DNA of 64,000 nt from Bdellovibrio sp. GTDB taxonomy: Bacteria; Bdellovibrionota; Bdellovibrionia; Bdellovibrionales; Bdellovibrionaceae. The notes beneath the pieces are model-generated. The model was not told where the DNA came from. It ran no database searches and saw only the letters and a program-made list of their open reading frames with translations. The stretch is from the NCBI GenBank assembly GCA_037968775.1, contig JBBKWD010000072.1:11339-75338 (forward strand). The letters are read 5' to 3'. A program made the translations under genes and the position numbers. Positions within the stretch are counted from its first letter, which is position 1; every line of letters begins with the position of its first letter. Positions 28,363-43,628 of this stretch are shown one piece after another.

Positions 28363-29712
28363 ATGTCGAGAATTGAAACTGAGAAAAAAAACTTTCGTGA
28401 CAAGCTCAATGCCGTCAGCCCCTCATTTTGCCTGGCAAAGTGGCTGCAAGTCACCATGCACCTTCATAGTGGGCATAATCACTCCTGTCATCATCCCGGA
28501 ACGCATAAAACTCCACTTTCGGAATTAAAGAACAACCCCTCAGCCCTGCATAACACTTGTTTTAAAAAAGTGCAGCGTGCGGACATGAAAGCAGGTAAGC
28601 GCCCTTCTGAATGTGAGTACTGCTGGAACATTGAAGATCTGGGCCCGTCTTACTTAAGCGATCGTACATTAAAATCTTCAGAGTTTTGGGCGGCTCCCGA
28701 GTTTGAGCGGGTTTCAGCTATGGCGAATAGCGAAAACATCAATCCAACCTATGTTGAAGTCAGCTTCAGCAATGTCTGCAATTTCCGATGCAGCTATTGC
28801 TCAGGAAATTTTTCGACGCGATGGACAGATGACATTTCCCGAAACGGATCTTACTCAACTCGCAACGGTGAACAAACCATGGACATCCTGCCAGAGGAAA
28901 ATAATCCCTATATCAAGGCCTTTTGGGAGTGGTGGCCCGAACTCGTAAAGAACCTCAAGGTTTTCCGAATCACAGGTGGTGAGCCCCTTCTTTCGCCAAA
29001 TACCTTTCGCGTGCTAGAGGAACTCAGCCGCAATCCCCAACCTGATTTAGAGATCGGAATCAATTCCAATCTAGGAATATCGGACGCCTCATTTCAAAAG
29101 TTTTTGGCGTTGGCCAAGGACCTAACCGAAAATAAAAAAATTAAAATGATTCGACTTTTCACAAGCGTGGAAGCTTGGGGAGAGCGAGCTGAGTATATCC
29201 GCAACGGCCTGCAGTTCATGCGCTTTCAACGGAATCTCGAAACCTTTCTCAAGGAAGTCCCTCAAGGGCAGGCCGTCATAATGGCAACCTTTAACTCGCT
29301 CAGCTTGACTTCTTTTACTGACTTGCTCTTGTATGTGAAGGGACTTAAAGAAACCTACACTTTGGATCCGGCAAAGTGCCCTCTATTTATTGATATTTCC
29401 TATCTCCGTCACCCTGACCACCAAAGCATTCAACTTTTGCCCGCATCTTATCAAAAAAAGATGAACGATATCTGCGACTATATGGAGCTCAATAAAGTTA
29501 CCGACAAGGATCCAGCTGGATTCTATTTTTTCGAAGTCACGAAAGCTCAACGAATTCTGGAATGGATGAAGCAACCTTTAGATGATGAAAAACTCAACGA
29601 AGGACGTCGGCACTTTTTCAAATTCTTTTCAGAGCACGATCAACGTCGCCAAACTAACTTTTTAAAGAGCTTCCCTGAAATGACAGACTTTTGGGACCTA
29701 TGCCAGCAGTAA
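28363..29712 (+). CDS. Radical SAM enzyme with N-terminal Cys-rich (twitch-like) domain, paralog 1
   Basis: CxxxCxxC motif in SFSNVCNFRCSYCSG. The N-terminal Cys set comprises FCLAKW, SCHHP, TCF and CEYC. The C-terminal tail ...FLKSFPEM is shared with the paralogs. Confidence 0.8.
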   Translation: MSRIETEKKNFRDKLNAVSPSFCLAKWLQVTMHLHSGHNHSCHHPGTHKTPLSELKNNPSALHNTCFKKVQRADMKAGKRPSECEYCWNIEDLGPSYLSDRTLKSSEFWAAPEFERVSAMANSENINPTYVEVSFSNVCNFRCSYCSGNFSTRWTDDISRNGSYSTRNGEQTMDILPEENNPYIKAFWEWWPELVKNLKVFRITGGEPLLSPNTFRVLEELSRNPQPDLEIGINSNLGISDASFQKFLALAKDLTENKKIKMIRLFTSVEAWGERAEYIRNGLQFMRFQRNLETFLKEVPQGQAVIMATFNSLSLTSFTDLLLYVKGLKETYTLDPAKCPLFIDISYLRHPDHQSIQLLPASYQKKMNDICDYMELNKVTDKDPAGFYFFEVTKAQRILEWMKQPLDDEKLNEGRRHFFKFFSEHDQRRQTNFLKSFPEMTDFWDLCQQ

Positions 29713-30734
29713 CAATAGGACTCGTTATTCATAATGAGTCCTTAAATCTTCCAGGGCTTCTACAAAACCTCGAAGATATTCTGATTCCCGACTCTGTGGA
29801 TATTCTCATCGTCGATAATGCTTCGACTGATTCAACCCCAGAAATAGTGAAAAAGTGGCAAGATGCGCAGACCAGGAAATGGAAAACTTCAATTATTTCT
29901 CGCAGAGTCAATAACTTGGCTGAAGCCCGAAATGACGTTATTCAAAATGCAGATACCGAATGGATTTTTTTTACAGATGCCGACTGCCGCCTTTCCAGTG
30001 AGTCCTGGCAAAAGCATTTAGACTTTATAGACTCACCTTTACTCACGCCCCGGATTGCAGCGTTTGGTGGCGGGAACCGACCTTGTGGCCCTAAGAGCTT
30101 TATGACCCGTGGACTTCAGACGATGAGTCTTAATGGACTTGCACATATGGGGTCCATTCAGCTCCGCAGCCCACGAAGCACTGAAAAAGTGTCCTTGCTT
30201 TCAACTTGCAATCTCATGTTACGGACCCGGATCGCGCAAGAGTGCGGTGGTTGTGATACTCGATTCCACCCAGTGGGTGAGGATTTGAGTCTTTGCCATC
30301 GGCTACTGGACAAGGGCTACTCTTTACTTGCCGTGCCCCACATCACTGTTGATCACTATCAGACACAAAACCTGAAGATCTGGTCCAAGAAAATGTTTCG
30401 CTATGGCGGGGCCCAAATTAAAGTGGCCCAGACTTATCCTCGACACTTAAGAGGCCCTCGTGGGCTGCAGCTCTTAGGAGGACTTTTGCTTAGCGGCTAT
30501 TTCCTCATTCATCCGCTTCAAATAATTTTATTCTTGGGAGCCTATGCCGCCCTCTTCATCTTGCTGTCCGTACAATCGGGGATCACAAATGGGAAAAATA
30601 TTTTTTCTGGAATGAGTTTAAGTTTTATTTCTCACGCTTGCTATTTTGCAGGGGAAGTCGACTCCCTAGGACGCTGGCTTTGCTCCACACTTGTTCGATT
30701 TTTCCCCTCAAAATTCCAACTCGAGAAAGAATAA
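29700..30734 (+). CDS. Family 2 glycosyltransferase with C-terminal TM helices (GtrB/ArnC/DPM1-like architecture)
   Basis: ATG 29700 overlaps the upstream rSAM gene by 13 nt. Motifs VTIGLVIHNES, ILIVDNASTD and FFTDADCRL. Hydrophobic C-terminus LLGGLLLSGYFLIHPLQIILFLGAYAALFILL. Confidence 0.8.
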   Translation: MPAVTIGLVIHNESLNLPGLLQNLEDILIPDSVDILIVDNASTDSTPEIVKKWQDAQTRKWKTSIISRRVNNLAEARNDVIQNADTEWIFFTDADCRLSSESWQKHLDFIDSPLLTPRIAAFGGGNRPCGPKSFMTRGLQTMSLNGLAHMGSIQLRSPRSTEKVSLLSTCNLMLRTRIAQECGGCDTRFHPVGEDLSLCHRLLDKGYSLLAVPHITVDHYQTQNLKIWSKKMFRYGGAQIKVAQTYPRHLRGPRGLQLLGGLLLSGYFLIHPLQIILFLGAYAALFILLSVQSGITNGKNIFSGMSLSFISHACYFAGEVDSLGRWLCSTLVRFFPSKFQLEKE

Positions 30735-31494
30735 GGAACAAAATCAGGCCCGGAATGAGACTGACTGCAAGACCGGAAAGATCAAACTTTAATGCGCCAC
30801 TGAGATTTCTTTTTCCAGCGGCGACTCCTTGGCGATAGGCCCGCTTTGCGAAAACATCGAAATTAGACTCGTCAATATGAGTGATCGAGAAATCAGAATG
30901 CCAACGCCCGCTAAATGAAGTCTGGCGTTCAAGATTCAGCAGCATTTCTTTTTCCTCTCCGCCCCAACGCAACTCTGCAGGAAAGACGATGGCTGCTTTG
31001 ATCACTGCCGAGCCAAAGATGAAACCACCTAAAAGATGCACTTGACCACGATCTGTCTGTCCTGATCGCAACCACAATTGGTTCACGGCCTGATACACAC
31101 GATTCCAGTAGTTGGATTTACCTTTCAAAATATAGCTGCCGCCATGAACACGGTTTTCCTCTGCCGAGATCTCAAAAATTCTGGCAATAATTTCGGGATT
31201 CTCGATGAGGCAGTCATCGTCCAAGAAAATAAAATAGCGACCTTTTGAAATGCGCAATCCCAAATTTCGCGCATTGGACACGCCACCTAAATGGCTGAGA
31301 TAGAATTGAAAATCAGAAAACTCCTGTTTGAGCTCAGTGATTTTTGAGGACTCTAAGGCCTCATCCACGATCACCAAGACTTCATAGGATTGTACGTCTG
31401 GCAATCCCTGCAAGGCCTGCAGACATCGTCCTAAATGGCGCCCCTCTTTCGTGGCGATTATTATGCTGAGAGACGGTGTCTGAGGATTGCCCAA
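30625..31494 (-). CDS. Family 2 glycosyltransferase
   Basis: Motifs LSIIIATKEG, VLVIVDE and IFLDDDCLI, with one C-terminal hydrophobic helix. The 3' end overlaps the convergent GT2 gene by 110 nt. Confidence 0.75.
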   Translation of the reverse strand: MGNPQTPSLSIIIATKEGRHLGRCLQALQGLPDVQSYEVLVIVDEALESSKITELKQEFSDFQFYLSHLGGVSNARNLGLRISKGRYFIFLDDDCLIENPEIIARIFEISAEENRVHGGSYILKGKSNYWNRVYQAVNQLWLRSGQTDRGQVHLLGGFIFGSAVIKAAIVFPAELRWGGEEKEMLLNLERQTSFSGRWHSDFSITHIDESNFDVFAKRAYRQGVAAGKRNLSGALKFDLSGLAVSLIPGLILFLILSRVGILRGKIEQVWSKASVLGSRLPLQNSKREK

Positions 31495-32153
31495 AAAAAC
31501 TTGACTCCATCTGAAAGAGGATTGAGTTTCGATTCGCCTCGGCGCTCTTCATAGCGAATTTGCATTTCCGAAAACTTCATTTTGCCATTAAGAATCTGCA
31601 AAGTCAGAGCCATAGAATAACTCAGATCATTTTGACCAACGCTGCAAAACTCCTCTTTTAAATGCGACCGGAACAATCGCATACCCGTGCACGGATCCCC
31701 AATGTGGGGAAAACCAAATAACTTCAAACAATAGTAGTAGAGATTATTTCCAACTCTGCGAACAAAGGGCATCCCATTGGCTTGCCCCAGGCGATTTCCG
31801 AACAGGACATCCAACTCTTGGGTTTCAAGTTGGTGGTAAATCTCTGGCAGCTGGCGAATATCGTAAGTGTCATCCATATCTAAAAAAACAATCAAATCAG
31901 ATTTGGCATGGCGAAAGCCTTTTTTTAAAGACGCCCCATAGCCCTCGCATCTCTCAGAACGCAATACCGTCAGATCTGAAAACTGCCTCAACATTTCGGA
32001 GGAGCGATCATTCGAACCGTCATCCACAACAATCACTTCTTGAACTTGAGGCATTTGCAATCGCAGCTCATGGACTTTTGCCATAACGGCGACGATAGCC
32101 TTTTCCTCGTTGTGGCAGGGAATAACGATGCTGACGGAAGGAGATTTTTTAAT
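31461..32153 (-). CDS. Family 2 glycosyltransferase (polyprenol-phosphate glycosyltransferase-like), probable ATT start
   Basis: Track ORF starts at ATG 32084, but the GT2 motif SVSIVIPCHNEE is encoded in frame upstream of it. There is no ATG/GTG/TTG between the in-frame TGA (32168-32166) and 32084. AGGAG at 32165-32161 lies 7 nt before ATT 32153. Other motifs: VIVVDDGSNDRS, LDMDDTYD. Confidence 0.7.
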   Translation of the reverse strand: MKKSPSVSIVIPCHNEEKAIVAVMAKVHELRLQMPQVQEVIVVDDGSNDRSSEMLRQFSDLTVLRSERCEGYGASLKKGFRHAKSDLIVFLDMDDTYDIRQLPEIYHQLETQELDVLFGNRLGQANGMPFVRRVGNNLYYYCLKLFGFPHIGDPCTGMRLFRSHLKEEFCSVGQNDLSYSMALTLQILNGKMKFSEMQIRYEERRGESKLNPLSDGVKFFWAILRHRLSA

Positions 32154-33525
32154 AAACCAGCTCCTTCATCTCCGGGAAGGTTTCACCGAAGTTCAGCTTA
32201 CGAATTCCATCCATATGTTGAATATACTCTTTAAATTCAGGCAGACGATTAGACCAGTCCTCAGAGTTCATAAACTTTACGAGGCCCTTGAGACGTTTGA
32301 TCCCGTATTCGCTTTCTTCCAAACGAACCGGATCTGGATGGTTCTCGTGCAACCACTTGTAAAAATCTTCATACTTTTCTGCGACCTTTTGCTTAAACTC
32401 TGGCGGCAGAACTTTCACATTCAAATGGGCCGGATGATAAACGAAATGGAAGTTGATCAGCCCCGCCCCCAATGGCCACGGATTTATTTTTTTAAATCCT
32501 TGAGTGAGCTTCCACTTAATAAAATCAGGAATATAATAAATATTTAAAATTTGCACGGCGCAAGCAACGGTCACCTCGATATGAGCCTCAGACTGATCCA
32601 AACGATGCAGCTGGGCCTCGATCTTAGACCACTGCGAAGGAAAACGAATGTAGTGATTCATCTCCCCAATGCTATCGATACTAAAATGAAAACGAACGCG
32701 GCGAAATTGCTTCCAAAGGTCAAAAATTCGCTCTGGCATTTCTAAGCCGTTGCTATTGTAGCGAAGCTCGATATTTTTCGCATGGCCTTGCTCAATGCAT
32801 TGCTCGAGCAATTTATAGTGCTCTTCAATGATGGTACTTTCCCCGCCGGCAAAATAAAGTTGCTGCAGATTCGGCAACTGAGTTGTCAAACCCTTCCAAA
32901 ATTCCGGGTTGTCTGAAAACCAGGTATAACTGGCGCCATCGACCTTGCCTTGTGAAGGCCACTGAATCGTTTCTTTGAGTTGGGGATTTTCGACCAAAGC
33001 ATGAAGCTTATTCCAATCGCCGACCCAGCGTGAACTGTCGTGAGGCGAACACATGATACACTTTAAATTACACTTTGTGCCCAAACGCAAATCGATATAA
33101 GCAATATGAGGTGGGACCTCTCCCTCGGGAGTTGTCTTTTCGATAAGCGCCTTGGTGTCGATTCTCTGACTCCAATATTCAGTTTCCCAAATTCTCTTGG
33201 AGCGATGTCCCGCGGCCTCTTCCTTAAAACACTTCAAGCAAGAAGGCGGTTGTTCTCCGCTCAACATCATCTGCCGAACTTTTCGCATATAAGGGCCATT
33301 CCAAGCTTCGAGCAAACTGACCTGACCAAGATTGGCCGGAGCCCCTGACTCAGTCTTCAAGATCCCCACTTCACCACCATATTTTTTATCATTGGTTTTC
33401 CCAGCTGAGGACGCATTTGCCGTACAGCACAAACGCATATGCCCATTAGGACGGGTGGAAAGATGAATCCATGGAAGGATACAAAACGAAGATGTTACTT
33501 GGTCCGGATGAAGGCGTTCTGGCAT
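32149..33525 (-). CDS. Radical SAM enzyme with N-terminal Cys-rich (twitch-like) domain, paralog 2
   Basis: N-terminal FCILPWIHLSTRPNGHMRLCC...CLKC, then LGTKCNLKCIMCSP (CxxxCxxC). It aligns by eye along its length with the 49491-50864 protein. Confidence 0.8.
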   Translation of the reverse strand: MPERLHPDQVTSSFCILPWIHLSTRPNGHMRLCCTANASSAGKTNDKKYGGEVGILKTESGAPANLGQVSLLEAWNGPYMRKVRQMMLSGEQPPSCLKCFKEEAAGHRSKRIWETEYWSQRIDTKALIEKTTPEGEVPPHIAYIDLRLGTKCNLKCIMCSPHDSSRWVGDWNKLHALVENPQLKETIQWPSQGKVDGASYTWFSDNPEFWKGLTTQLPNLQQLYFAGGESTIIEEHYKLLEQCIEQGHAKNIELRYNSNGLEMPERIFDLWKQFRRVRFHFSIDSIGEMNHYIRFPSQWSKIEAQLHRLDQSEAHIEVTVACAVQILNIYYIPDFIKWKLTQGFKKINPWPLGAGLINFHFVYHPAHLNVKVLPPEFKQKVAEKYEDFYKWLHENHPDPVRLEESEYGIKRLKGLVKFMNSEDWSNRLPEFKEYIQHMDGIRKLNFGETFPEMKELVY

Positions 33526-33552: not shown

Positions 33553-34923
33553 GTGTTTGCAACAGGTGCCCTCTTAAATTACATTATCAGAGTGGCACGT
33601 CATTTTCTTGTAGAGCGAAATTCATTTCATAGTCTGACTCCTTATGGCTCCAAGGAAAGCGCTCTTTCGATTTCTTCGTGGGATTACTCCTTCACAACTC
33701 TCAAGCTGCAGGATATCGAGGCCAATAAAATCCAAATCCCCTTGGTGTTGAACTCCACTGCCTTTGACTTGCTGCCTTCTCCAGAGCTAGAAGCCATACT
33801 GATGAGCCAAACAGCTCCTGTTCGTTTGCAAATCTCCCTTGGCGCAGAGCTTACACGACACCAAGCCCTGGTTTTTGGACTCCTCAAAGATGGGTGCGGA
33901 CTTGATTTCCTTATAGACCGCCCTATCCCTGATGCGTCGCGAGCTATGATCGCTGAATTATGTCAGCAGTTTGATATCCGACTTTGTGTTTTGGTGAATC
34001 GATACTTTTCCACTCAAGAGACTCTTCGATCACTTCCGAAAGAGGTTAAGGATAATATTTTCCTGCTTCTTCTGCCGCCCCTGAATTCTGGATCTCACTT
34101 TTGCGCGCCGGATCATGTATACCGAATTCTGAGCGAACTTGAGGGGACCTGGCGTCTTTTGGTTTTTGAAAATGCTCTTGGACAACTGCCTCCCGGGGCC
34201 GAAAAGAATTTTTATACTCACTTTGATATCGAGAATTTTCTTGAGGACTCCAAAAGCATTCGTACCTATCACACTTTTAGAGAAGTCACCGTTTGGCTTT
34301 TGCAGAGACGTTGGATTTTTTTCTTAGATTTCTTACATTCAATTTTGCTCTTGGTACGCAATCCTTCACTAGCAAAGTTTTCGCAACTGCTTTCAATTTT
34401 AATCCGCCCTCTTAAAAACTTAATGAGAGCTGCAAAATATTTCACTTGGAAATTAAAGATGGGCGGCCACGCAGTTTATATTTTTTTTAGATACCGCTCA
34501 CTCACCCAAGTCTATTCATTTGTTCGCTACGAATGCGTTAATAAAGGTTTTTATTGGTCGCGCGAAAGGTCGGTACGGGTTTGGCACTTTTGTAAATACA
34601 ATTTGGCGATCCCGTTTTACTATGGAATTCGCGGATTCGGACCTCAAGCATGGGTGTTCTTTCGACATCGAGTCTTCGGTCTCGCAAAGGGTTTTGTCGT
34701 TCAAATCTGGATGCTAATTAAGTTTCAACTCATTCATAGAATTTTTATCTTCTTTCGATACACAGCATTCGGGTGGATTCAAATTGCTTGGGGTCAAGCT
34801 TGGCGCCTGAAGGAAGTTCTTCGCGTTCTGCTTTTTCCCATATTCAAAGTTTTTTGGTTTTTTTCCTATCAATTTCGAACTCGCGTCTCTCCTCTCTTCA
34901 AAAATGAAGTCGAAGACGAATGA
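33553..34923 (+). CDS. Unknown protein with C-terminal aromatic/basic FFR[YH] repeat region
   Basis: 456-aa ORF (GTG start uncertain). The C-terminal ~200 aa carries the recurring motifs IFFRYRS, VFFRHRV, IFFRYTA and WFFSYQF. Its stop overlaps the next GT2 start (ATGA). Confidence 0.5.
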   Translation: MFATGALLNYIIRVARHFLVERNSFHSLTPYGSKESALSISSWDYSFTTLKLQDIEANKIQIPLVLNSTAFDLLPSPELEAILMSQTAPVRLQISLGAELTRHQALVFGLLKDGCGLDFLIDRPIPDASRAMIAELCQQFDIRLCVLVNRYFSTQETLRSLPKEVKDNIFLLLLPPLNSGSHFCAPDHVYRILSELEGTWRLLVFENALGQLPPGAEKNFYTHFDIENFLEDSKSIRTYHTFREVTVWLLQRRWIFFLDFLHSILLLVRNPSLAKFSQLLSILIRPLKNLMRAAKYFTWKLKMGGHAVYIFFRYRSLTQVYSFVRYECVNKGFYWSRERSVRVWHFCKYNLAIPFYYGIRGFGPQAWVFFRHRVFGLAKGFVVQIWMLIKFQLIHRIFIFFRYTAFGWIQIAWGQAWRLKEVLRVLLFPIFKVFWFFSYQFRTRVSPLFKNEVEDE

Positions 34924-35882
34924 TTTCTATTGTAGTGCCCTCTTCAGGGTCTGCCTCGTCAGTTCGACACCTCTGTGACTCGATTCTTCAGCAGAAAGTC
35001 TCGGAGGAACTTGAGGTTTATATTGTCGCCAATCCCGATTCGAAAGAGATTCGCTCGCTACTTGCCGAATACCCGGCTCGATTTCATTACCTATCCAGCG
35101 GTCGCGGAGCGAATTGCGCGCGCAACGCAGGCCTTAAAGCCACACGCGGACGATTTGTTTTCTTTTTTGATGACGACTGTATTTTACCCTCAGCAGACTT
35201 TTTGGCTCGCGGCATTTCCTACCTAAATCAACATCCCGCCTGCATGGGGTATGGCGGCACTTATCGCCCTTACCAAAAATCGCTTTCCATCTATGACACC
35301 GCCTACTGCTATATTCAAAATAAATGGCTATTGGAAGGGGTCACCTCCACCGGAGAATCGCTATATTTAATTGGCGGCAATATGATGCTTCGACGCGAGC
35401 TCTTTACTCAGTATGGATTATTTTCCGAAAATCTCGCCTTCGGTGGCACCGAGACCGAACTCTTCAGTCGCATGGAAAACGTGCGCCTCGACTTCGATGC
35501 CGATCGATTTGTGTGGCACAATTATCAACTCAGCTATTGGACCTTTTTGCGAAAAGGATTCCTGCAGGGGGTGGGCAGCAGTTATATCCGTAAATTTCAT
35601 CCGGGTTGGAAACGCAGCGAAATTACCTACGGAAAATCGGCCGTTCTAAACAAAGTTGAACTCAACTCCGTGTCAGACCGCGCGCTGCAGAAATACAAAT
35701 GGGCTTTTTTTACTGGGGATCTTTTTTACCAGAAGAACAAGCGGACGAAAATGTCTCGTGCGCGGATATCTTGGGAACTTTTTCGATCCCAATACTTTCA
35801 AAATAAAAACAGATTCCGTCACACCCTTGATGATATTTTGTGTATCGTAGAGAACATAAGGAATAAATATGCCGGTCGATAA
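34920..35882 (+). CDS. Family 2 glycosyltransferase
   Basis: Motifs MISIVVPSSG, VYIVANPD, ARNAGL and FFFDDDCIL. Confidence 0.75.
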   Translation: MISIVVPSSGSASSVRHLCDSILQQKVSEELEVYIVANPDSKEIRSLLAEYPARFHYLSSGRGANCARNAGLKATRGRFVFFFDDDCILPSADFLARGISYLNQHPACMGYGGTYRPYQKSLSIYDTAYCYIQNKWLLEGVTSTGESLYLIGGNMMLRRELFTQYGLFSENLAFGGTETELFSRMENVRLDFDADRFVWHNYQLSYWTFLRKGFLQGVGSSYIRKFHPGWKRSEITYGKSAVLNKVELNSVSDRALQKYKWAFFTGDLFYQKNKRTKMSRARISWELFRSQYFQNKNRFRHTLDDILCIVENIRNKYAGR

Positions 35883-36738
35883 AAGCTTATTGCTACGCTC
35901 TGCTCAGCCCCTACAGGACCCTCAAGTGGAAGCTTATATAGAAACGCTATCATTCAAGAACCTTCGCAAGTGGAATGATGCAGAGAACTCGAGGCTTCAC
36001 TTTTTTCGAGCAGCGACCCTTTGGCTGCAGGATTTTTTGGGCACAAATGACTTAGCCGCATTTCCTCATCTTCACCTCACAAACGGGACTACGGGGTCTT
36101 TTGAAAACTTCTACCAAATTCACTGCAATCGTAAGCTGAAGGTTTTGCCTGGCGAATATCCCTTTCATCGCGATGTTTTTGAGAATCTTGAACGCCCCTG
36201 GGCTTGGCTCCAAATTGATCAGCTTGATCAGAATGACTTTGTGATACTCTCTGTTCCTTTTTCCGGAGACGGCAATATCCATCCCGAACTTTTTTCCGTT
36301 CTAGAGCACTGCGAAGCCTTAAGAATTCCCGTTCTTATTGATTGTGCTTTCGCGGGCCTCAGTGCATTGACCTTGCCAGACCTCCGTCGCTTTCAATGCA
36401 TTCAAAAAATTTCTTTTTCTCTATCCAAGGTGTTTAACTTCGGGCACTTTCGCTGTGGATTTGAATATTGCAAACTTCCTACAGGCAGTAATTTTATTCT
36501 TAACAACTGGGATTATGGCCCTAAAGCTGCCGCCTATTGGGGATTGGCTTTGATGCAGCAGTTTCCCCTTCGCCATATATTTGATACCTATCGAGCTAAG
36601 CAGCTCGAGGTTTGCAAAGAACTTCAGATTACGCCCTCTGATACGGTGCTTTTTGGAATCGGTGATGATTCTTGGAAAGAGTTTAATCGCGATAAGACTT
36701 TCAACCGAATTTGTCTTTCAAATGTTTTAGCGACTTAA
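35869..36738 (+). CDS. PLP-dependent aminotransferase-like protein (short, fold-type I-like)
   Basis: FSLSKVFNFGHFRCGF matches the SxSK...GxRxG pyridoxal-lysine signature of class I/II aminotransferases. At 289 aa it is shorter than canonical enzymes. Confidence 0.4.
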   Translation: MPVDKSLLLRSAQPLQDPQVEAYIETLSFKNLRKWNDAENSRLHFFRAATLWLQDFLGTNDLAAFPHLHLTNGTTGSFENFYQIHCNRKLKVLPGEYPFHRDVFENLERPWAWLQIDQLDQNDFVILSVPFSGDGNIHPELFSVLEHCEALRIPVLIDCAFAGLSALTLPDLRRFQCIQKISFSLSKVFNFGHFRCGFEYCKLPTGSNFILNNWDYGPKAAAYWGLALMQQFPLRHIFDTYRAKQLEVCKELQITPSDTVLFGIGDDSWKEFNRDKTFNRICLSNVLAT

Positions 36739-36755: not shown

Positions 36756-37214
36756 TTAGAGTTTGATCTGAACATAACTGTGTTCAGACTCATTTTCAGT
36801 GGATGGCATCTCTTGAAATCCGAAACTTTCGTAAACCGGCAATGCCGATAGCCTAGGGTAAGACCACATTTTCTGAAACCCTTGCTTTCGGCCCCACTCC
36901 CTCTGTGCATTCATTAACATCACAGAACCGCCCTGCTTTCGATAGTCCGGTTCCACATATAAACCTCGAATACGGTACGTCAGAGCAGAGGTTCCATGGC
37001 CCGATAGCACGCCGATGAGATTTTCCCCTCTAAAAAGGCCCACAAAATAGGGCTCATATTGATGGTAAATTTGCAGGTCATAACCACCCCCTAAAAGCAT
37101 AGAGCTCATGGGACGTATCGCATCGGTGCGCGTAGGCCAAAGTTTAGTGCGCCAAAATGGCAGGACTTCTGCAAAAGTGATTTGTTTGATAGAAAAATTC
37201 ATAAGTTCTGCCAT
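36756..37214 (-). CDS. GNAT-family N-acetyltransferase
   Basis: 152 aa. LYVEPDYRKQGGSVMLMNAQREWGRKQG is an acetyl-CoA-binding motif A-like segment. Confidence 0.6.
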   Translation of the reverse strand: MAELMNFSIKQITFAEVLPFWRTKLWPTRTDAIRPMSSMLLGGGYDLQIYHQYEPYFVGLFRGENLIGVLSGHGTSALTYRIRGLYVEPDYRKQGGSVMLMNAQREWGRKQGFQKMWSYPRLSALPVYESFGFQEMPSTENESEHSYVQIKL

Positions 37215-37223
37215 AATAATATC

Positions 37224-37772
37224 ATGTCGTCGTCAAATCCCGTACGGAAAATAAGTTTTGAAGTTAATTTACCACGCTTGCTGGATGAGGCGAACCAGCT
37301 GATTTCCTCGGTGGGATTTGACAAGTCCGCGCAACAGATTGGCCTCACTCATACGCCTTCATGTGCCGCAGAGAATCGATACTTTGAGTCCGTGGGCTCA
37401 CTTTATGACTATGAAAAAGACAAGTTTGCCTTTCATGAACGTGATTTTAATGTCTTCAATCAAGACCACCAGGGGTCTTATTTTGAATGGCTCTATTTAA
37501 ACCTGCCCTTTAAAGTGGCCCGCATGCGCCTGATGCGCATGCCACCCAAAAAATGTCTTTCTATTCATGAGGACACCGGGCCCCGTTATCATATTGCGCT
37601 AAAGACCAATCCATTTTCTTATCTCTTTTTCCCAGAGTCGAAAATCAGCTTTCAAATTCCAGCTGATGGATTTTTATATGAGATGGATGCGACTCAGCTC
37701 CACACAGCATTCAATGCCGACCTCAGTGAAGATCGCATTCATTTAGTTTTCTCAGATTTAGAAAAAAGCTAA
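37224..37772 (+). CDS. Aspartyl/asparaginyl beta-hydroxylase-like cupin (2OG/Fe(II) oxygenase family)
   Basis: Start at ATG 37224. The segment LSIHEDTGPRYHIALKTN...DATQLHTAFNADLSEDRIHLVF fits the H-x-D...H pattern and the conserved R-x-H / D-R-x-H-L blocks of that family. Confidence 0.55.
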   Translation: MSSSNPVRKISFEVNLPRLLDEANQLISSVGFDKSAQQIGLTHTPSCAAENRYFESVGSLYDYEKDKFAFHERDFNVFNQDHQGSYFEWLYLNLPFKVARMRLMRMPPKKCLSIHEDTGPRYHIALKTNPFSYLFFPESKISFQIPADGFLYEMDATQLHTAFNADLSEDRIHLVFSDLEKS

Positions 37773-37795: not shown

Positions 37796-39250
37796 TCAAT
37801 CGAGAAATATCTTGAGCTTTTCATATATGGAGGGCGACAGATGATTAACGAAAAACGTCTTTGCCGTCGTCCGCATTAATTTGTGTTTAAAATACATCGA
37901 ATGGCGGTAACGTGCTTTTTCTGTCAACGGCGTCAAATGATACAGAGGAGTCCTCTCAAGATAAAATCGCAAACCTTTTTGATGGGCTGTAAACCCAAAG
38001 TCCGTATCTTCAAAACCATAAGAAACATAGGTCTTGCGAAATTTACCCAAGTTTAAGAATGTCTCTCGCTTTAAACTCAAACTATAAGTACACGCGTACT
38101 TCCAATAGTCGGGAATACCCATCCAATCGTCGCTGGTGAAAAAGGGGCCCCAATAGGATTCTTCCTCGATATAGACGTCTTTTTTCCCGAGCGCTTGAAT
38201 TTCTGTGAACTTGCCGGAAAATGACGGCTTTATATGATAACGAACAAACTGTAAAAGATCTGTTTGCTGCAGCCTTTGCTGCACGATTTCTAAATAGTTA
38301 TCGGGAACGATCATGTCGGAGTCTAAGAAACTCAAGATCGATCCCTTAGAAAAAGATGCCCCATAGTTTCGGCAGAGACCCGCCCGAAAGCTTCCCAACA
38401 ACTCCCCTGCTTTCTGAGTTTTCGGCACATGGTGATAGCTAAAGTTAAAGTTACCAAGCTCAGGGGCCAAGAAGGACTTCAGCGTATTCGTCGCCGCTTG
38501 GGGTGAACCATCATCGACAACTAGGACCTCAAATCGATTGCGATTGCAGTTTTGCTTCAAAAGATGGCGCAAAGAGTTCACCAAAAAGTCAGTTCCTTCA
38601 TATGCCGGAATGATCACCGACACTTCGATCTGAGGCTGGGCACTTTGACTTGAAACCAATTCCTGCCCTCGCAAAAAGAGTTCGACTTCTTGAGGAATCC
38701 GACTGTCGTATTGATCCAGTCCCGGTAACGGGCGATATTTCATTTCCGGGAAACTCTTTGTGATCTTTTGGCCCAATTGGTAAATATGTTTGCCGCTCAT
38801 CTTGCTGCAAGGCTCAAAGTAAAGTTGTTCCCTGAGCCAAATCGGTAGATACGACAAATTTGCCGCCACCTCAAAAGGTTTTGAATACTTCAGCAATCCA
38901 TAAATTTGAGCGCGCAGCGGATACAAACTCTCCAGATGACCGGACAAAGGCTCTGCACAAGGCCTGAGCTCCAAAATAATCTCATCAGTTTCCTGCAAAA
39001 TATTTTCCAGGTCCGAACGACTGACGTCCTTCAACACCTCATGCGGAAGCTGCAAGCAAATGGCCATCTTTGCCTCTCGCAACCGCTGCCTTAAATCACT
39101 CCACAACTTTGGGTGGCGGGGCCATTGCCACGAAATAAGTATATGCGAACACTCGCAGAGCAAGGCTTTCTGAATTCGCCTCTCGCAAATCGCCGCCTCC
39201 TCATGGAACTCTAGTCGATAATAAGTTTTCATGACTCTAGAGTCGGCCAT
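37796..39250 (-). CDS. Long two-domain glycosyltransferase (unknown N-terminal ~200 aa + GT2 domain), paralog A
   Basis: Motifs VSVIIPAYEG, FEVLVVDDGSPQ, FLDSDMIVP and YGFEDTDFGF. The start overlaps the rSAM stop by 22 nt, or by ATGA if Met7 at 39232 is used. Confidence 0.8.
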   Translation of the reverse strand: MADSRVMKTYYRLEFHEEAAICERRIQKALLCECSHILISWQWPRHPKLWSDLRQRLREAKMAICLQLPHEVLKDVSRSDLENILQETDEIILELRPCAEPLSGHLESLYPLRAQIYGLLKYSKPFEVAANLSYLPIWLREQLYFEPCSKMSGKHIYQLGQKITKSFPEMKYRPLPGLDQYDSRIPQEVELFLRGQELVSSQSAQPQIEVSVIIPAYEGTDFLVNSLRHLLKQNCNRNRFEVLVVDDGSPQAATNTLKSFLAPELGNFNFSYHHVPKTQKAGELLGSFRAGLCRNYGASFSKGSILSFLDSDMIVPDNYLEIVQQRLQQTDLLQFVRYHIKPSFSGKFTEIQALGKKDVYIEEESYWGPFFTSDDWMGIPDYWKYACTYSLSLKRETFLNLGKFRKTYVSYGFEDTDFGFTAHQKGLRFYLERTPLYHLTPLTEKARYRHSMYFKHKLMRTTAKTFFVNHLSPSIYEKLKIFLD

Positions 39251-40362
39251 AAGGGTGCCGTTGATGAACTTTTTCTTTTTGGAATTTTACTATCAGCACT
39301 GCTCACGCAAGACGGTGTCGTGCACGGTCGCAGGTCCTCAAACAATTGAAAGCCTTCGTCTAAACTTCCCAGGGGTTTGTCATGACAACTATAACTTCGC
39401 TTAACGACGCCACCGGGTTCTCGAATAACCAAAGAGCGATAACCAGCACTGCACTGCCATCCGGAAAATTGATTAAAGGGAAATGCATTCAATCTTTCGG
39501 CCTGATCTAAATACCAAAGCTTGCCGTCCGAATCCCTTAGTTCCATTTGCATATTTGCATGGCGAACAGTTTCCAGACTGCGATCTTGAATTTGATATTT
39601 AGAACGAGGACGAGGCGAAGTCTTTTGCAAGGCTTGCAGCCGCAGACCGGTATAGTCCATTTGCGGCAATCCGTTCTTCAGGATCTCCATTTGGGCTGCT
39701 GTGTAACCGTCCACTACCATGGTCGCATCCAAGTTGGATTGGGGCTTCAAGGTCACATTGATTCCCGCATTGTGAAAGTCTAAAGCCAGTTCCCACAGCA
39801 TTTCAAAACGCTCTGGCACCATCACCATATTGATAGTGACTTGCACGTCATGCCCCTGCAAAAAGATAATTTTCTGTTTGAATTCTTCAGACTTCGCAAA
39901 TTCAGAGTGATAGCTCGCTGTGATGCTGACGCGATTGAGTTCTTTCGTGGCTTCGACGTATTTCTCATACCAAGCCATTTTTAAACTGAGATTTGTAGTC
40001 ATATGAACAGATTGATAATTACAGTTAGGTGTGTCGGCCCCGTAAGCCTGCAAAAAATCGAGGTAACCCGGATGCATACTGGGCTCACCTCCACTAAAAG
40101 AAAAGTGAAAAGAATTAAAGCCCCGCTCTCGGGCTTGGCGTTTGATCTCTGCAATATTCTGAATGACGACTTCTGTCGGACGGTGATCTTTTATTTTAGT
40201 GCTCGCATAGGGCCAGCAATAGCTGCAAGAGTAATTGCAAAAGCGACCGAGAATCCAGCTCACAGCAAATAAGTCGCGATACAAAAGACTGCGCTGCCCC
40301 AGGCTCTCGATTTTTTCAAATGGAATTTGAGTGAAATCATATTCAGATAGATGTGTACTCAC
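39229..40362 (-). CDS. Radical SAM enzyme with C-terminal Cys cluster (twitch/SPASM-like)
   Basis: The GTG start shares nt 40362 with the upstream stop. CxxxCxxC in GRFCNYSCSYCWP. C-terminal WQCSAG...SYSCHD...RPCTTPSC. Confidence 0.8.
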   Translation of the reverse strand: MSTHLSEYDFTQIPFEKIESLGQRSLLYRDLFAVSWILGRFCNYSCSYCWPYASTKIKDHRPTEVVIQNIAEIKRQARERGFNSFHFSFSGGEPSMHPGYLDFLQAYGADTPNCNYQSVHMTTNLSLKMAWYEKYVEATKELNRVSITASYHSEFAKSEEFKQKIIFLQGHDVQVTINMVMVPERFEMLWELALDFHNAGINVTLKPQSNLDATMVVDGYTAAQMEILKNGLPQMDYTGLRLQALQKTSPRPRSKYQIQDRSLETVRHANMQMELRDSDGKLWYLDQAERLNAFPFNQFSGWQCSAGYRSLVIREPGGVVKRSYSCHDKPLGSLDEGFQLFEDLRPCTTPSCVSSADSKIPKRKSSSTAPLWPTLES

Positions 40363-41090
40363 TACTTCACTCCAATTTGCATGAAACGCTTGTATCCGAA
40401 CAATTCTAGCTCTCCGCTAAAAAGAATCGTGGATAAAGGAGCTTGCTGTTCAAAGGCATGCAGATCTGCCACACAATTCACATGATCACGGCCCTCATAA
40501 AAATCATTATTCTGGAGAACAACAAATTGCCCGGAAGGAATGGCCTCAAACCAACCCTTAAAATTCGTCAAATGCTCACAGACGGTATTAATTATAATAT
40601 GGGGTTGATGGGGTGCAAAAGCAGCGGCGTGTAAATCCATAGTTTTCACATCCAGCATGCCGTTCCAAGAATAAGGCTCATTCAAACTATTTGCGATCTC
40701 GGCGCATTCTGGATCAATATCAAAGCTGCAACAGTCTTTGACTAAATGAGGCATCAACCAAAAACTCATTAAAGCTGTCATTCCCGTCCAGCCCCCACCA
40801 ACTTGCAGTGAATACTGTCCTTGCGGAAGGACGTCTTTTAAGACTTCAAAAAGCCAAATTTTAGATTCGATTTGTCCTTGAGAAAGGGACTCTTGCACAC
40901 TTTTCCAATGACGCGCGTCCAACTTTTTAACTTGTCGCGCATAGGTGCCGTACTCCCACAATCCTTCACTGAGCAAATGCTTTTGCCAGTGCCCTAGCGC
41001 CTGCGTGGAGCAAGATCCCTCGAGGAAGGATTGCATCGCCCTGGCAAAAGAGCGTATAGATTGTGAAGTTAGAGTTCTGTCCTGCATCAA
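40362..41090 (-). CDS. Class I SAM-dependent methyltransferase-like protein
   Basis: LQVGGGWTG resembles a glycine-rich motif I. SFDIDPEC provides the acidic end of strand 2. IIINTVCEHL resembles motif IV. Confidence 0.5.
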   Translation of the reverse strand: MMQDRTLTSQSIRSFARAMQSFLEGSCSTQALGHWQKHLLSEGLWEYGTYARQVKKLDARHWKSVQESLSQGQIESKIWLFEVLKDVLPQGQYSLQVGGGWTGMTALMSFWLMPHLVKDCCSFDIDPECAEIANSLNEPYSWNGMLDVKTMDLHAAAFAPHQPHIIINTVCEHLTNFKGWFEAIPSGQFVVLQNNDFYEGRDHVNCVADLHAFEQQAPLSTILFSGELELFGYKRFMQIGVK

Positions 41091-41145
41091 CTATTTATTA
41101 GCCATTCCAGGACCTGTAATGTCAAGATCTTGAAAGAGGTTTGGT

Positions 41146-42240
41146 TTGTATAATTATGAAGATATCAGAATGGTTCATCTCGAGGTGACGTCTCGCTGCA
41201 ACGCGAGCTGCCCTATGTGCGCACGCAATATTCACGGCGGCAAAACCAGCCCCTATCTTCCCTTAACAGACCTCCGCCTGGAGCAAATAAAACAAATCTT
41301 TCCTGTCGCATTTATCCGACAACTTAATAAAATCTATCTCTGCGGTAATTATGGGGACCCGGCTGCGGGGCCAGAGACTCTCGAAATTCTTTCTTACTTC
41401 CGAGAGGTCCACCCTCAAATCACTCTCGGAGTCCACACCAATGGCGGCGTTCGATCCTCTGAATGGTGGGGGCAATTAGCAAAAGTTGTTAGTTATTGCC
41501 GTTTCGGTATCGATGGCCTCGAGGACACCAATCACCTTTATCGCCGAAATGTAAACTGGGAGCGCCTGCAACAAAACATTAAGGCCTTTGTTGCTGCCGG
41601 TGGACGTGCCGAATGGGACTTCCTATTGTTTGAACACAATGAACACCAAATAGACAGAGCACGAGACCTTGCAAAAACCTGGGGCTTTCAAGACTTTCAG
41701 GTTAAGAACACGTCGCGGTTTTTTGACAAAAAAACAACCACGACATTAATGGACTATCAGGTGCGGGATGTTGATGGTCAGAACATTTATAAGTTACGTC
41801 CGACGCGCTTGTCTCATTATCAAAATAAAGCCCTTGAAAAGGGTTATCGTGAAGTTGTGGCGGAATACGGTTCAGTGATGGATTATTGGAACAAGACTGA
41901 AATTCAGTGCCGTGTTGCTGTTGAAAAAAGTATTTATATCTCAGCAGAGGGTTTGGTTTTCCCCTGCTGTTGGACCGCTGGGCAGCTTTACTCTGCGACG
42001 ACGCCAATGTCGGCCGCGAACAATGAAGTCTGGAAACAAATTGAGTCCTTGAGTGAAGGCAAAGAATCCCTTTCGGCTCTTCGTTACAGCATAGAGTCCA
42101 TCCTCCGTGGTGCTTACTTTCAAAAAACGCTACCAGAAAGCTGGAACGCGCCTTCCCTGAAAGAAGGTAAACTGCAAGTCTGTGCAAAAACCTGTGGACA
42201 GACTGTGAAACCTTTTGAAAGTCAGTTTATCAAAGTATGA
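41146..42240 (+). CDS. Radical SAM / SPASM-type enzyme
   Basis: TTG 41146 lies 6 nt after AAAGAGG. Motifs LEVTSRCNASCPMC (CxxxCxxC) and LCGNYGDP. C-terminal Cys motifs: IQCRV, FPCCW and CAKTCG. Confidence 0.8.
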   Translation: MYNYEDIRMVHLEVTSRCNASCPMCARNIHGGKTSPYLPLTDLRLEQIKQIFPVAFIRQLNKIYLCGNYGDPAAGPETLEILSYFREVHPQITLGVHTNGGVRSSEWWGQLAKVVSYCRFGIDGLEDTNHLYRRNVNWERLQQNIKAFVAAGGRAEWDFLLFEHNEHQIDRARDLAKTWGFQDFQVKNTSRFFDKKTTTTLMDYQVRDVDGQNIYKLRPTRLSHYQNKALEKGYREVVAEYGSVMDYWNKTEIQCRVAVEKSIYISAEGLVFPCCWTAGQLYSATTPMSAANNEVWKQIESLSEGKESLSALRYSIESILRGAYFQKTLPESWNAPSLKEGKLQVCAKTCGQTVKPFESQFIKV

Positions 42241-43628
42241 AGGGCGCCTATATTTCCCCGACAGTTTACAAATACCTTTGGGGCACAAGACTCCCTTGGC
42301 CCTTTGGTAAAACTCGCGTAGAAATTGATTCTCTCTACACAGAGTTTCAAAAGTCCCCTTATCGCCATTTTCTGTTTCCAGCTGACTGGCTCCAAAAGTT
42401 AAAAAACTCAGAAACCCTTCCACCGGAAGCCGTCCTCATTGTTACCGCAAAAAAATATTCAACCTCAAATGGCCACAAACACCCATTGATTGTTTTGGTA
42501 AAGTCGGCCGATGAGGCCCTGCGATTTTTTGACTCCGGCAGTCCCGCAACTGAAATTTTTCTACTTACCGACTCTGTTCCTCAAAAAAAAGATTTAGAGG
42601 CTCTTATGAAAATTCCCAATTTAAAATGGCATTTTTCATATAAAATGAAGGACTCCGACCTGCAACGCAGTCTTAAGATCTTAAAGTCTCAAAATTTTTC
42701 CGCGAAATCTTCCGATTTTATAGAGCTGACTTCGCAAAAGAATATCGACCTTTGGTTTGCCCCTGAAGTTGAAGTTCTCTTGCAAAAAATTCCACCAGAA
42801 AGTCCCGACTTTTCGATCGTCATCCCTTTTCAGGACAACTATGCAGAGCTCGAGCAAACCCTGACATTTCTTTTCCAAAGCCTGACCTCAGACCTTCATT
42901 TTGAGATTTTACTTGCCGACGACAGCTTTTCCAAAGCTCACCAGGCCGCTCTGCTCGAAATCCTGAAGTCTCATTCCGTACCAGCAACTTATTTAAAACT
43001 TCACCGCGAAGCTGGACGAAAAAAAGGTGACTTGTCTTTTCGGGCCGGTGTCGCCCGCAACTGTGCTGTCCGTTTTGCCCACGGCAAAGAACTCGTCTTT
43101 TTGGACTCTGATATTCTGGTCGGAGCCGGTTTGTGGAATAACATTCAGCTAGATCGCAAGAGTCACCAAGGCCCCTTGATGCCCCGTCGCCACTTTCTTC
43201 GTTCAGATCTTTCGCTGCGAAATAAAGACTATTCTAAAATTTCTTTAGGCCAAGACACCCTTTTAAGCTGGGGCGGACACTGGGAAGATTTCTATCGCCA
43301 TTCAACAGATTCCGATAGCTGGAAATGGACATCGACCTACTGCCTGGCTCTTCCCAAAGACCTTTTTCTTGAGCTCGGAGGCTTTCGCAGATCTTTTTAT
43401 TGTTACGGATTTGAGGACACCGATTTGGGCTTTAGATTGGCGCATAGTTCACGTCCTTTAAAAGTACTCAATCAGGATGTTTTTCACCTGCCCACCCCCA
43501 CAGAACGCAGTGAATATGCCGCCGACTTTAACCAACGAAAAAAGCTTTTGAAAAAATCTTTTGCAGTTTTTCAACGGAGCGTTTTGGAACCGAATTTATT
43601 GCCGCAATTTAAGCACATTATTTCCTAG
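42237..43628 (+). CDS. Long two-domain glycosyltransferase (unknown N-terminal ~200 aa + GT2 domain), paralog B
   Basis: ATGA overlap with the upstream rSAM gene. Motifs FSIVIPFQDN, FEILLADDS, FLDSDILV and YGFEDTDLGF. The C-terminal domain aligns with that of the 37796-39250 protein. Confidence 0.8.
   Translation: MKGAYISPTVYKYLWGTRLPWPFGKTRVEIDSLYTEFQKSPYRHFLFPADWLQKLKNSETLPPEAVLIVTAKKYSTSNGHKHPLIVLVKSADEALRFFDSGSPATEIFLLTDSVPQKKDLEALMKIPNLKWHFSYKMKDSDLQRSLKILKSQNFSAKSSDFIELTSQKNIDLWFAPEVEVLLQKIPPESPDFSIVIPFQDNYAELEQTLTFLFQSLTSDLHFEILLADDSFSKAHQAALLEILKSHSVPATYLKLHREAGRKKGDLSFRAGVARNCAVRFAHGKELVFLDSDILVGAGLWNNIQLDRKSHQGPLMPRRHFLRSDLSLRNKDYSKISLGQDTLLSWGGHWEDFYRHSTDSDSWKWTSTYCLALPKDLFLELGGFRRSFYCYGFEDTDLGFRLAHSSRPLKVLNQDVFHLPTPTERSEYAADFNQRKKLLKKSFAVFQRSVLEPNLLPQFKHIIS

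Follow-up and report, generated by a model that had tools for sequence, protein, structure and literature searches.

Radical SAM and glycosyltransferase genes of the island

The DNA analysed here, a stretch of 64,000 nucleotides (nt) from Bdellovibrio sp. (contig JBBKWD010000072.1 of assembly GCA_037968775.1, positions 11,339 to 75,338 of the forward strand; hereafter the window), contains at 26.6-50.9 kb a putative glycoconjugate-biosynthesis island of about 24 kb. The island carries genes for five radical S-adenosylmethionine (rSAM) proteins of the twitch/SPASM type and six glycosyltransferases of family 2 (GT2), together with nucleotide-sugar enzymes, a YdjC deacetylase and a weak match to GT-C (PMT-like) proteins. 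Four rSAM/GT2 pairs lie in its core. A reading of the sequence alone had described them as four rSAM genes, each leading on its own strand into a GT2 gene, with the GT2 start overlapping the stop of the rSAM gene, and this description was confirmed by Pfam searches, which found Radical_SAM in all four upstream genes and Glycos_transf_2 in all four downstream genes, and by reading of the junctions. The paired genes, and the deacetylase gene that comes after pair 4, are (lengths of proteins in amino acids, aa):

28363..29712, plus strand: rSAM1, N_Twi_rSAM, first gene of pair 1 (NF033640, 326.8 bits; Pfam Radical_SAM; CNFRCSYC)
29700..30734, plus strand: GT2_1, second gene of pair 1 (PF00535, 5.8e-21)
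32149..33525, minus strand: rSAM2, N_Twi_rSAM, first gene of pair 2 (NF033640, 439.4 bits; Pfam SPASM N-terminal and Radical_SAM)
31461..32153, minus strand: GT2_2, short GT2, second gene of pair 2, with a putative ATT start (PF00535, 2.4e-29, from residue 8 of the ATT-started translation)
39229..40362, minus strand: rSAM3, with a Cys-rich C-terminus, first gene of pair 3 (Pfam Radical_SAM, 5.4e-15; CNYSCSYC)
37796..39250, minus strand: GT2_3, N-terminal beta/alpha domain and GT-A domain, second gene of pair 3 (PF00535, residues 211-351)
41146..42240, plus strand: rSAM4, with a SPASM-like C-terminal Cys cluster, first gene of pair 4 (Pfam Radical_SAM, 3e-11)
42237..43628, plus strand: GT2_4, paralogue of GT2_3, second gene of pair 4 (PF00535 and Glyco_transf_7C match)
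43662..44372, plus strand: putative sugar deacetylase of the YdjC family, third gene of the rSAM4 operon (Pfam YdjC, 8.9e-25)

The start of the GT2 gene overlaps or abuts the same-strand stop in all four pairs, and translational coupling is predicted for each of them. In pair 1, ATG 29700 sits 13 nt within rSAM1, the TAA of which ends at 29712. The overlap of pair 3 amounts to 22 nt from ATG 39250 and to 4 nt (ATGA) from ATG 39232, while pair 4 shares ATGA at 42237-42240 (4 nt). In pair 2 the TAA of rSAM2 occupies 32151-32149, which gives a 5-nt overlap if GT2_2 uses ATT 32153. Starts far downstream, which would void the coupling, were ruled out for GT2_1, GT2_3 and GT2_4, GT2_2 being the weak point. 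The Pfam match of GT2_1 starts 6 residues past ATG 29700. The long form of GT2_3 is covered to 98-99% by homologues of 48-59% identity and residues 10-13 form a confident first strand in its AlphaFold2 model, both of which indicate that the database gene call (423 aa) is too short. The long form of GT2_4 (461-475 aa, with the 4-nt overlap) is also called in three related genomes (L051, L052 and L053; compared loci are cited by such numbers).

The reading frame of GT2_2 opens after TGA 32168-32166 and has no ATG, GTG or TTG until ATG 32084, and translation from there loses the first strand (SIVIPCHNEE), with which the Pfam alignment begins at profile position 1. The sole good candidate start is ATT 32153, which is preceded by GGAG at a distance of 7 nt. 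Two codons earlier, at a TGG of the window, the closest relative carries TTG; ATG is present in L051 and L053. The ATT start is plausible but unproven. The site itself (32149-32170, minus strand) may represent a rare AUU start, the recent loss of a start codon or an error in the sequence.

The sequence-only reading further held that the order of the two genes was always the same. This is true of the four pairs, all of which run rSAM-then-GT2, but not of the island as a whole. rSAM5 has a 4-nt overlap with a nucleotide-sugar dehydrogenase gene and not with a GT2 gene; downstream of these two genes come a short-chain dehydrogenase/reductase (SDR) gene, a short DegT-like gene, a gene without family match and a weak amidinotransferase-type match. 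Moreover, an rSAM gene is lacking upstream of two of the six GT2 genes. These genes are:

49491..50864, minus strand: rSAM5, third N_Twi_rSAM (NF033640, 378.2 bits)
48325..49494, minus strand: nucleotide-sugar dehydrogenase (Pfam UDPG_MGDP_dh domains; TIGR03026, 169 bits)
47508..48341, minus strand: NAD-dependent sugar epimerase/dehydratase, SDR (Pfam Epimerase, 6.2e-20)
46865..47524, minus strand: short (219 aa) DegT/DnrJ-type aminotransferase-like protein (Pfam DegT_DnrJ_EryC1, 8.4e-18)
45415..46875, minus strand: 486-aa protein of the rSAM5 operon (no family match; the L052 operon has a 470-aa gene at the same position)
44381..45418, minus strand: 345-aa protein with a weak match to the arginine deiminase/amidinotransferase superfamily (Pfam ADI, 4e-4, below cut-off)
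30625..31494, minus strand: GT2_x, GT2 without rSAM upstream, comes after GT2_2 (PF00535, 1.9e-10)
34920..35882, plus strand: GT2_y, GT2 without rSAM upstream (PF00535, 5.4e-15)

Overlap is the normal operon style of the island and not a hallmark of the pairs, since 13 of its 14 same-strand junctions overlap. By themselves the overlaps are therefore no argument for the stoichiometric co-production that the earlier reading derived from fixed order and coupling. The same count speaks for operon packing and inheritance as the explanation of the pairs: in a dense polysaccharide locus the order would have arisen once, in the ancestor of this Bdellovibrio lineage, and would have persisted as block synteny with generic coupling and no enzyme-specific partnership. 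The pairing of rSAM5 with a dehydrogenase and the two unpaired GT2 genes point the same way. On the other hand, when the labels of the 23 island genes (5 rSAM, 6 GT2) were shuffled one million times with strands kept, at least four of five rSAM genes leading into a GT2 gene occurred with P = 0.001, in a test that is post hoc and silent on the cause of the order. Inside the island, the order of rSAM before GT2 is not random. We regard packing and inheritance as an unlikely explanation of the pairs, though one that has to be given serious weight.

Close relatives, single-chain fusions and the paired proteins

The best named homologues come from Bdellovibrio sp. HCB2-146, a named strain and the closest database relative, and from metagenome-assembled genomes (MAGs) of Bdellovibrionales, Pseudobdellovibrionaceae and Oligoflexia. 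The adjacency of the paired genes, which the sequence-only reading expected to see conserved in related genomes, is kept in HCB2-146 (L002) and in L051, L052 and L053, where rSAM4 is 59-70% and GT2_3 49-59% identical to the window proteins. All pairs visible on the contigs of these four relatives are kept, with the two genes overlapping or 1 nt apart. Pair 1 is kept in L051, and L052 keeps the rSAM-then-dehydrogenase pair together with the same kinds of following genes. In a survey of the clade by open reading frames (ORFs) and hidden Markov models, 15 of 21 rSAM genes led into a GT2 gene and the reverse order, GT2 then rSAM, was found 0 times. Genes for P460, arylsulfotransferase-like and FtsJ-like proteins are inserted between the operons of the relatives, and the pairs are intact. 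The cytochrome P460-like and arylsulfotransferase-like genes lie in or beside the equivalent island at L052 2339-4856, L053 11151-13614 and L006 3244-5294; the window has neither.

Proteins that hold both domains in a single chain were found in distant lineages. The metagenome locus L054 encodes two GT2-rSAM proteins of 490 and 523 aa, as well as a 746-aa protein with a GT28-type domain, rSAM and SPASM and a deacetylase-B12-rSAM protein; it looks archaeal from the presence of an archaeal A24 peptidase C-terminal domain. The 746-aa protein and rSAM4 have the same two best NCBIfam matches (tungsten-cofactor maturase and N_Twi_rSAM) and match one another by BLAST with E 1.6e-7. In the protein collection searched with the 490-aa fusion, PF00535 and PF04055 occur in one chain in at least 14 cluster representatives, with Woesearchaeota, Nanoarchaeota and Myxococcota as named carriers, and the next best matches after the fusions were members of the GT2_3 family from Bdellovibrionia. 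Three fusions have the arrangement rSAM-GT2-rSAM with two CxxxCxxC motifs each. A Nanoarchaeota MAG (L135) encodes an rSAM-SPASM-GT2 chain, the order of which from N- to C-terminus equals the gene order in the window, next to rSAM-GT2-rSAM and rSAM-GT4 proteins, a DegT gene and more rSAM/SPASM genes. At L134 the order is rSAM/SPASM, deacetylase-GT2-rSAM, B12-rSAM and a PMT_2 gene, for the most part families of the kinds that the window has. The best window match of the fusion GT2 domains is GT2_3, with E 1e-15 to 1e-24. Fusions linking the two domains ('Rosetta stone' proteins) were thus found in L054 (two ORFs), L134, L135 (two) and at least 14 cluster representatives, and such domain-fusion evidence suggests that a GT2 of the GT2_3 subtype and an rSAM protein work together, most strongly for pairs 3 and 4. 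Positions 2951-7987 of L135, adjoining the rSAM-GT2, rSAM-GT2-rSAM and rSAM-GT4 fusions, encode a single chain of 1678 aa that contains four CxxxCxxC motifs and three or more rSAM domains.

The five rSAM proteins of the window all reach the PF04055 cut-off of 29.5 bits (37.5, 29.5, 56.4, 44.2 and 40.8 bits), carry CxxxCxxC motifs (CNFRCSYC, CNLKCIMC, CNYSCSYC, CNASCPMC and CNLKCRMC) and fall into one single-linkage BLAST cluster of 147 proteins from 45 loci. In three of them the auxiliary domain is N-terminal. rSAM1, rSAM2 and rSAM5 pass the NF033640 cut-off of 170 bits clearly and are members of a family whose name, 'twitch domain-containing radical SAM protein', carries no function and which is overall unlinked to GT2 genes, whereas rSAM3 (45.7 bits) and rSAM4 (41.6 bits) stay below this cut-off, rSAM3 being also below that of STM4011. 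The earlier view that the pairs use different rSAM and GT2 subtypes holds only in part, rSAM1, rSAM2 and rSAM5 being one family and GT2_3 and GT2_4 paralogues.

The AlphaFold2 model of rSAM4 (mean predicted local distance difference test score, pLDDT, 93.3) matched best to BlsE among PDB folds (Foldseek E 2.8e-12), and further to SkfB, SuiB, CteB, anSME, NifB, MoaA, viperin, SpeY and BtrN, with template modelling (TM) scores of about 0.4-0.55. As modelled, rSAM4 is a SPASM/twitch-class enzyme, and the protein has 5054 homologues at E up to 1e-5. Sequence searches of PDB chains with rSAM2, rSAM3 and rSAM4 by phmmer were uninformative (best E 1e-3 to 0.4). BlsE and the dehydrogenases BtrN and SpeY resemble the window rSAM proteins in being small, in having an auxiliary iron-sulphur (twitch/SPASM) domain and in acting on sugars or cyclitols; they differ in that they have no sequence-level relation to the window proteins and that none of them is paired with a GT2. 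The substrate of BlsE is cytosylglucuronic acid (PMC3715490). By analogy, a substrate of the glucuronic-acid type would fit the coupling of rSAM5 to a dehydrogenase gene.

All six GT2 genes pass the PF00535 cut-off of 23.3 bits (27.9-102.8 bits), and DxD-type motifs (DADC, DMDD, DSDM and DSDI) were read in the translations. GT2_2 resembles polyprenyl-phosphate hexose transferases, its best NCBIfam likeness being to dolichyl-phosphate hexose transferase (102 bits, below cut-off). GT2_3 and GT2_4 are 28% identical over 302 aa and have a common N-terminal extension. In the AlphaFold2 model of GT2_3 (mean pLDDT 91.5) the GT-A part superposes on K4CP, RmlT and TarP and also resembles WrtF; Foldseek matches of the whole model are dominated by this GT-A domain. 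The N-terminal part of about 190 aa forms six strand-helix (alternating beta/alpha) units at residues 10-166, with a counterpart in GT2_4 at 42237-42800. The GT2_3 family is nearly confined to Bdellovibrionia, and a phmmer search of 1.84 billion representatives with the extension returned its own family only.

In the rSAM-GT2-rSAM fusions an rSAM domain occupies the position that the N-terminal domain has in GT2_3 and GT2_4. Local hhalign of the extension with this N-terminal rSAM domain gave a collinear match that is not significant (E 0.004, probability 8%), and global hhalign with rSAM profiles, those of rSAM3 and rSAM4 included, gave no similarity (probability 0.1-0.3%). Derivation of the extension from a decayed rSAM domain has little support.

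Readings of the gene pairs

On balance we lean, if only slightly, towards reading the region as the core of a glycoconjugate island and the pairs as modules that join radical sugar tailoring with glycosyl transfer. That the product would be a surface glycoconjugate is suggested by the nucleotide-sugar enzymes, the polyprenyl-phosphate-like GT2, the weak GT-C match and the acetyltransferase and deacetylase genes. Each rSAM/GT2 pair would be the unfused counterpart of the rSAM-GT2 fusions of DPANN archaea and Myxococcota. The GT2 may transfer a hexose or N-acetylhexosamine to an acceptor that is either lipid-linked or a glycan, and the partner rSAM may remodel that sugar via a 5'-deoxyadenosyl radical, by oxidation, epimerisation, dehydration, decarboxylation or ring contraction, either at the nucleotide-sugar stage or after transfer. 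In the operon of rSAM4, GT2_4 and YdjC, deacetylation could come between the transfer and the radical step, as with HpnI, HpnK and HpnJ of hopanoid synthesis. Functional pairing in the clade, echoed by the fusions elsewhere, is likely from these comparisons. The fold matches of rSAM4 to twitch enzymes of sugars or cyclitols (BlsE, BtrN and SpeY) and the retention of the pairs despite insertions between the operons of the relatives are further points in favour of modules. What operon packing does not readily account for is the strictly directional order in the clade (15 against 0), the position of the paralogues GT2_3 and GT2_4, one behind each member of the widely co-located rSAM3/rSAM4 pair, and the independent fusion of both domain types in archaea and Myxococcota, where the GT2 domains come nearest to GT2_3.

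Several observations weigh against pairs as modules, and those on gene neighbourhoods at the same time favour operon packing. The genomes that keep the pairs, five in all, represent one lineage, hence one evolutionary observation. Outside this clade, a scan with an N_Twi_rSAM alignment, taking one genome per species, yielded 42 loci, which together with L003 and L004 made 44 loci with 124 rSAM-type ORFs. A GT2 gene came after 4 of these 124 (L013, L034, L041 and L048), about the background rate, with some 1.5 expected on a rough estimate from the GT2 frequency in the surveyed loci; 44 of the 124 (35%) led directly into another rSAM gene. Orthologues of rSAM2 (62-68% identity), rSAM3 (59-65%) and rSAM4 (41-50%) are clustered within a few kb in nine loci (L003, L004, L009-L014 and L020), with rSAM4 directly after rSAM3 in six of them (L003, L004, L009, L010, L012 and L020), and in 8 of the 9, L013 being the exception, no GT2 gene stands directly downstream of any of the three. 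No rSAM gene was found near distant relatives of GT2_3 in L006, L007 and L008. The fusions are qualified as well: the rSAM domains of most of them are nearer to HxsC- or MoaA-like proteins than to rSAM3 or rSAM4 of the window, an rSAM4-like domain occurs only in the GT28-type fusion, and the fusion rSAM domains are only distantly related to those of the window. Finally, fold matches at TM of about 0.5 do not separate sugar-acting from peptide-acting rSAM proteins.

In the surveyed loci outside the clade the pairing thus stands at roughly background, and it cannot be upheld as a general organising principle of the families (15 of 21 in one clade, 4 of 124 elsewhere). It is a clade-restricted operon pattern, seen also in some distant lineages, and does not extend to all members of the enzyme families. 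The orthologues without an adjacent GT2 gene imply that rSAM2, rSAM3 and rSAM4 can work without one, or that their GT2 partners are encoded elsewhere; they suggest a conserved function of these rSAM proteins of their own. The neighbourhoods of these orthologues belong to Bdellovibrionales and Pseudobdellovibrionaceae and often lie amid unrelated housekeeping genes, at identities (41-68%) like those of the genomes that share the island. A GT2_3-like gene stands in the rSAM neighbourhood in L014, L015 and L041, in orders that differ from that of the window. A metagenome scan with a GT2_3 alignment yielded L054 but otherwise mostly generic GT2 loci at 22-36% identity, which are unfit for family-specific linkage and serve as a background set: in 80 such loci, 1 of 108 GT2 genes comes after an rSAM gene.

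A stricter form of partnership, in which each rSAM and its GT2 form a putative obligate stoichiometric complex that couples the radical step and the transfer in one active-site assembly, was also considered. In its favour are the stop/start overlaps of all four pairs and their retention in relatives, the occurrence of fusions in both orders including rSAM-GT2-rSAM, a classical sign of domains acting in proximity, and the extra N-terminal domain of GT2_3 and GT2_4 in the rSAM position of the fusions with its weak collinear profile match. That match is non-significant, however, and is accompanied by no similarity to the rSAM3 and rSAM4 profiles; overlap is not specific to the four pairs, and orthologous rSAM proteins and related GT2s are also encoded without a neighbouring gene of the other kind. 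We find an obligate complex rather improbable. An rSAM/GT2 complex as such is reasonable given the fusions, though not obligatory for the rSAM families, as the orthologues that lack a GT2 neighbour show.

Pairing of SPASM/twitch rSAM proteins with GT2s could alternatively indicate maturation of a ribosomally synthesised and post-translationally modified peptide (RiPP), in which the rSAM proteins would modify a peptide or protein of ribosomal origin and the GT2s would glycosylate it, as in glycocin or mycofactocin systems. The fold of rSAM4 is like those of SkfB, SuiB, CteB and anSME, the GT2s have a weak NCBIfam likeness to MftF and SunS and the fusion rSAM domains to HxsC, and tandem rSAM arrays, which occur in some RiPP clusters, are found in L035, L049 and L050. 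Yet all matches to peptide-maturase models were far below cut-offs, nearly all junctions in the island overlap and leave no room for a precursor gene (the largest gap, 284 nt, lies at the island edge), and nucleotide-sugar enzymes, a polyprenyl-phosphate-like GT2 and a weak GT-C match fill the island. No precursor ORF was noticed in the island, no dedicated small-ORF search having been run, and no peptidase or export genes were seen there. With no space for a precursor and sugar-nucleotide genes throughout, we rejected this reading as very improbable. The arrays themselves, made up of paralogous rSAM genes of the N_Twi type or related to it, comprise eight tandem genes in L035, 11 rSAM-type ORFs in L050 (Planctomycetales) and eight in L049 (an archaeon), with others in L030 and L022.

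Among known systems, mycofactocin clusters (MftC with MftF) and arsenosugar clusters (ArsS with a TIGR04283 glycosyltransferase-like protein) combine an rSAM with a GT2-type protein. The window GT2s match MftF and TIGR04283 weakly, far below cut-offs (82 against 280 bits for MftF), and the window differs in having neither a mycofactocin precursor nor an arsenic-related gene. The island set of a dehydrogenase, an SDR, a DegT-like protein, a short polyprenyl-phosphate-like GT2 and a weak PMT/GT-C match can be likened to Ugd, ArnA, ArnB, ArnC and ArnT of the Arn (aminoarabinose) pathway. An Arn-type pathway was rejected, all scores being far below cut-offs (ArnC 48 against 529 bits, ArnB 16 against 631 bits); no formyltransferase/deformylase was found in the island, and the Arn pathway itself has no rSAM.

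The closest likeness in working is to the hopanoid side-chain module, in which HpnI adds N-acetylglucosamine to bacteriohopanetetrol (BHT), HpnK deacetylates the product to glucosaminyl-BHT and HpnJ, an rSAM for which ring contraction has been proposed, converts it to the BHT cyclitol ether; calditol synthase is a related case (PMC13459092). The three proteins thus act successively on one sugar, and the earlier statement that no enzyme pair of this type had been described was too strong (PMC13459092). Glycosyltransferase, YdjC-type deacetylase and rSAM are the same three kinds of protein as those of the window operon of rSAM4, GT2_4 and YdjC. The hopanoid module has one rSAM and the window four or five. 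Membership of the window genes in the Hpn system was rejected, since the window rSAM proteins are of the twitch/SPASM type with no B12-binding domain by Pfam; the likeness concerns the working of the module and not the family. The HpnJ model TIGR03471 was absent from the NCBIfam matches reported for rSAM1-4 (E up to 0.01) and rSAM5 (E up to 0.001), the YdjC protein scored 28.1 bits on the HpnK model TIGR03473 (cut-off 232.6) and its likeness to chitin disaccharide deacetylase was also far below cut-off, and neither squalene-hopene cyclase nor HpnH was among the approximately 50 window ORFs scanned between about 16 and about 59.5 kb. The deacetylase-B12-rSAM protein of L054 scored 131 bits on the HpnJ model, below cut-off.

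Action of a glycosyltransferase and an rSAM on one sugar is accordingly known; no characterised member of the families in question was found. Our literature search found no paper on rSAM/GT2 pairing, on rSAM proteins with an N-terminal twitch domain in glycan loci or on rSAM-glycosyltransferase fusions. Tentatively, the rSAM-plus-glycosyltransferase units, whether overlapping pairs or fusions, might constitute an undescribed recurrent class of glycan-building units in which a radical sugar reaction is physically coupled to transfer and gives radical-remodelled surface sugars. Examples would be carbocyclic, keto/amino, decarboxylated or C-C-linked sugars in surface glycans or glycolipids. Bdellovibrionota and DPANN archaea both live by attachment to other cells, and it is pure speculation that such glycans could matter for contact. 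Radical SAM sugar chemistry has been described for a handful of antibiotic and lipid pathways and is barely known in the assembly of cell-surface glycans. Should the pairs be true modules, they would point to novel sugar structures and enzyme reactions. They would also offer a first way into the function of the N_Twi_rSAM family, to which none has been assigned and which is strongly expanded in Bdellovibrionota, where one locus can hold up to 8 tandem copies. Should operon packing alone explain the pairing, the island is an unusual but ordinary polysaccharide locus.

Other genes of the island and its surroundings

The remaining genes of the island are:

26612..28297, minus strand: predicted membrane protein at the left island edge (Pfam PMT, E 6e-4, 19.9 bits, below cut-off; no NCBIfam match)
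33553..34923, plus strand: 456-aa protein, divergent from rSAM2 (no Pfam or NCBIfam match; L002 homologue of 39% identity; family in 4 loci)
35869..36738, plus strand: 289-aa protein, weakly like pyridoxal-phosphate-dependent aminotransferases (weak profile matches, family alignment)
36756..37214, minus strand: GNAT acetyltransferase (Pfam Acetyltransf_1, 4.6e-11)
37182..37772, plus strand: clade-conserved protein of about 182-196 aa (L002 homologue of 70% identity, aligned from residue 15; no family match)
40362..41090, minus strand: 242-aa protein, methyltransferase-like by motif reading, 1-nt overlap upstream of rSAM3 (no family match)

The family of the 289-aa protein (35869-36738; also L002, L011, L018, L024, L030, L038 and L051-L053) has members of about 290-330 aa with invariant D158, S184 and K187 (Ser-x-x-Lys). 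Its matches are weak, with E 0.16-0.18 for PDB aminotransferases and Pfam Aminotran_1_2 in 3 of 10 members. The family adjoins an rSAM gene at all seven of its occurrences outside the window and the four related loci, and outside the clade it is the commonest non-rSAM neighbour of the related rSAM genes, ahead of GT2. An aminotransferase-like family beside rSAM genes recalls the dehydrogenase-plus-aminotransferase logic of BtrN with BtrS.

In the 242-aa protein upstream of rSAM3 the motifs GGGW and DIDP were read in the translation, and its homologues adjoin rSAM genes in L009 and L010. The short DegT-like protein covers about 60% of the 360-position Pfam model; a recent truncation is probably not the cause, as a gene of the same length stands at the same operon position in L052 (18681-19340). 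Scans for Rfam families and tRNA genes gave 0 matches, and counts of promoter and terminator motifs did not exceed the shuffle expectation.

Immediately to the left of the island, the window encodes at 23639-26595 a fibre-like protein of 851 aa, which has a Peptidase_S74 (endosialidase chaperone) domain at its C-terminus, and, after it with a 1-nt overlap, a 133-aa Cys-rich protein with a hydrophobic N-terminus. The 851-aa protein is similar to the trimeric fibre adhesins that have been reported from Bdellovibrio. The convergent genes GT2_1 (plus strand) and GT2_x (minus strand) overlap at their 3' ends by 110 nt (30625-30734), and by 113 nt in L051 (18883-18995).

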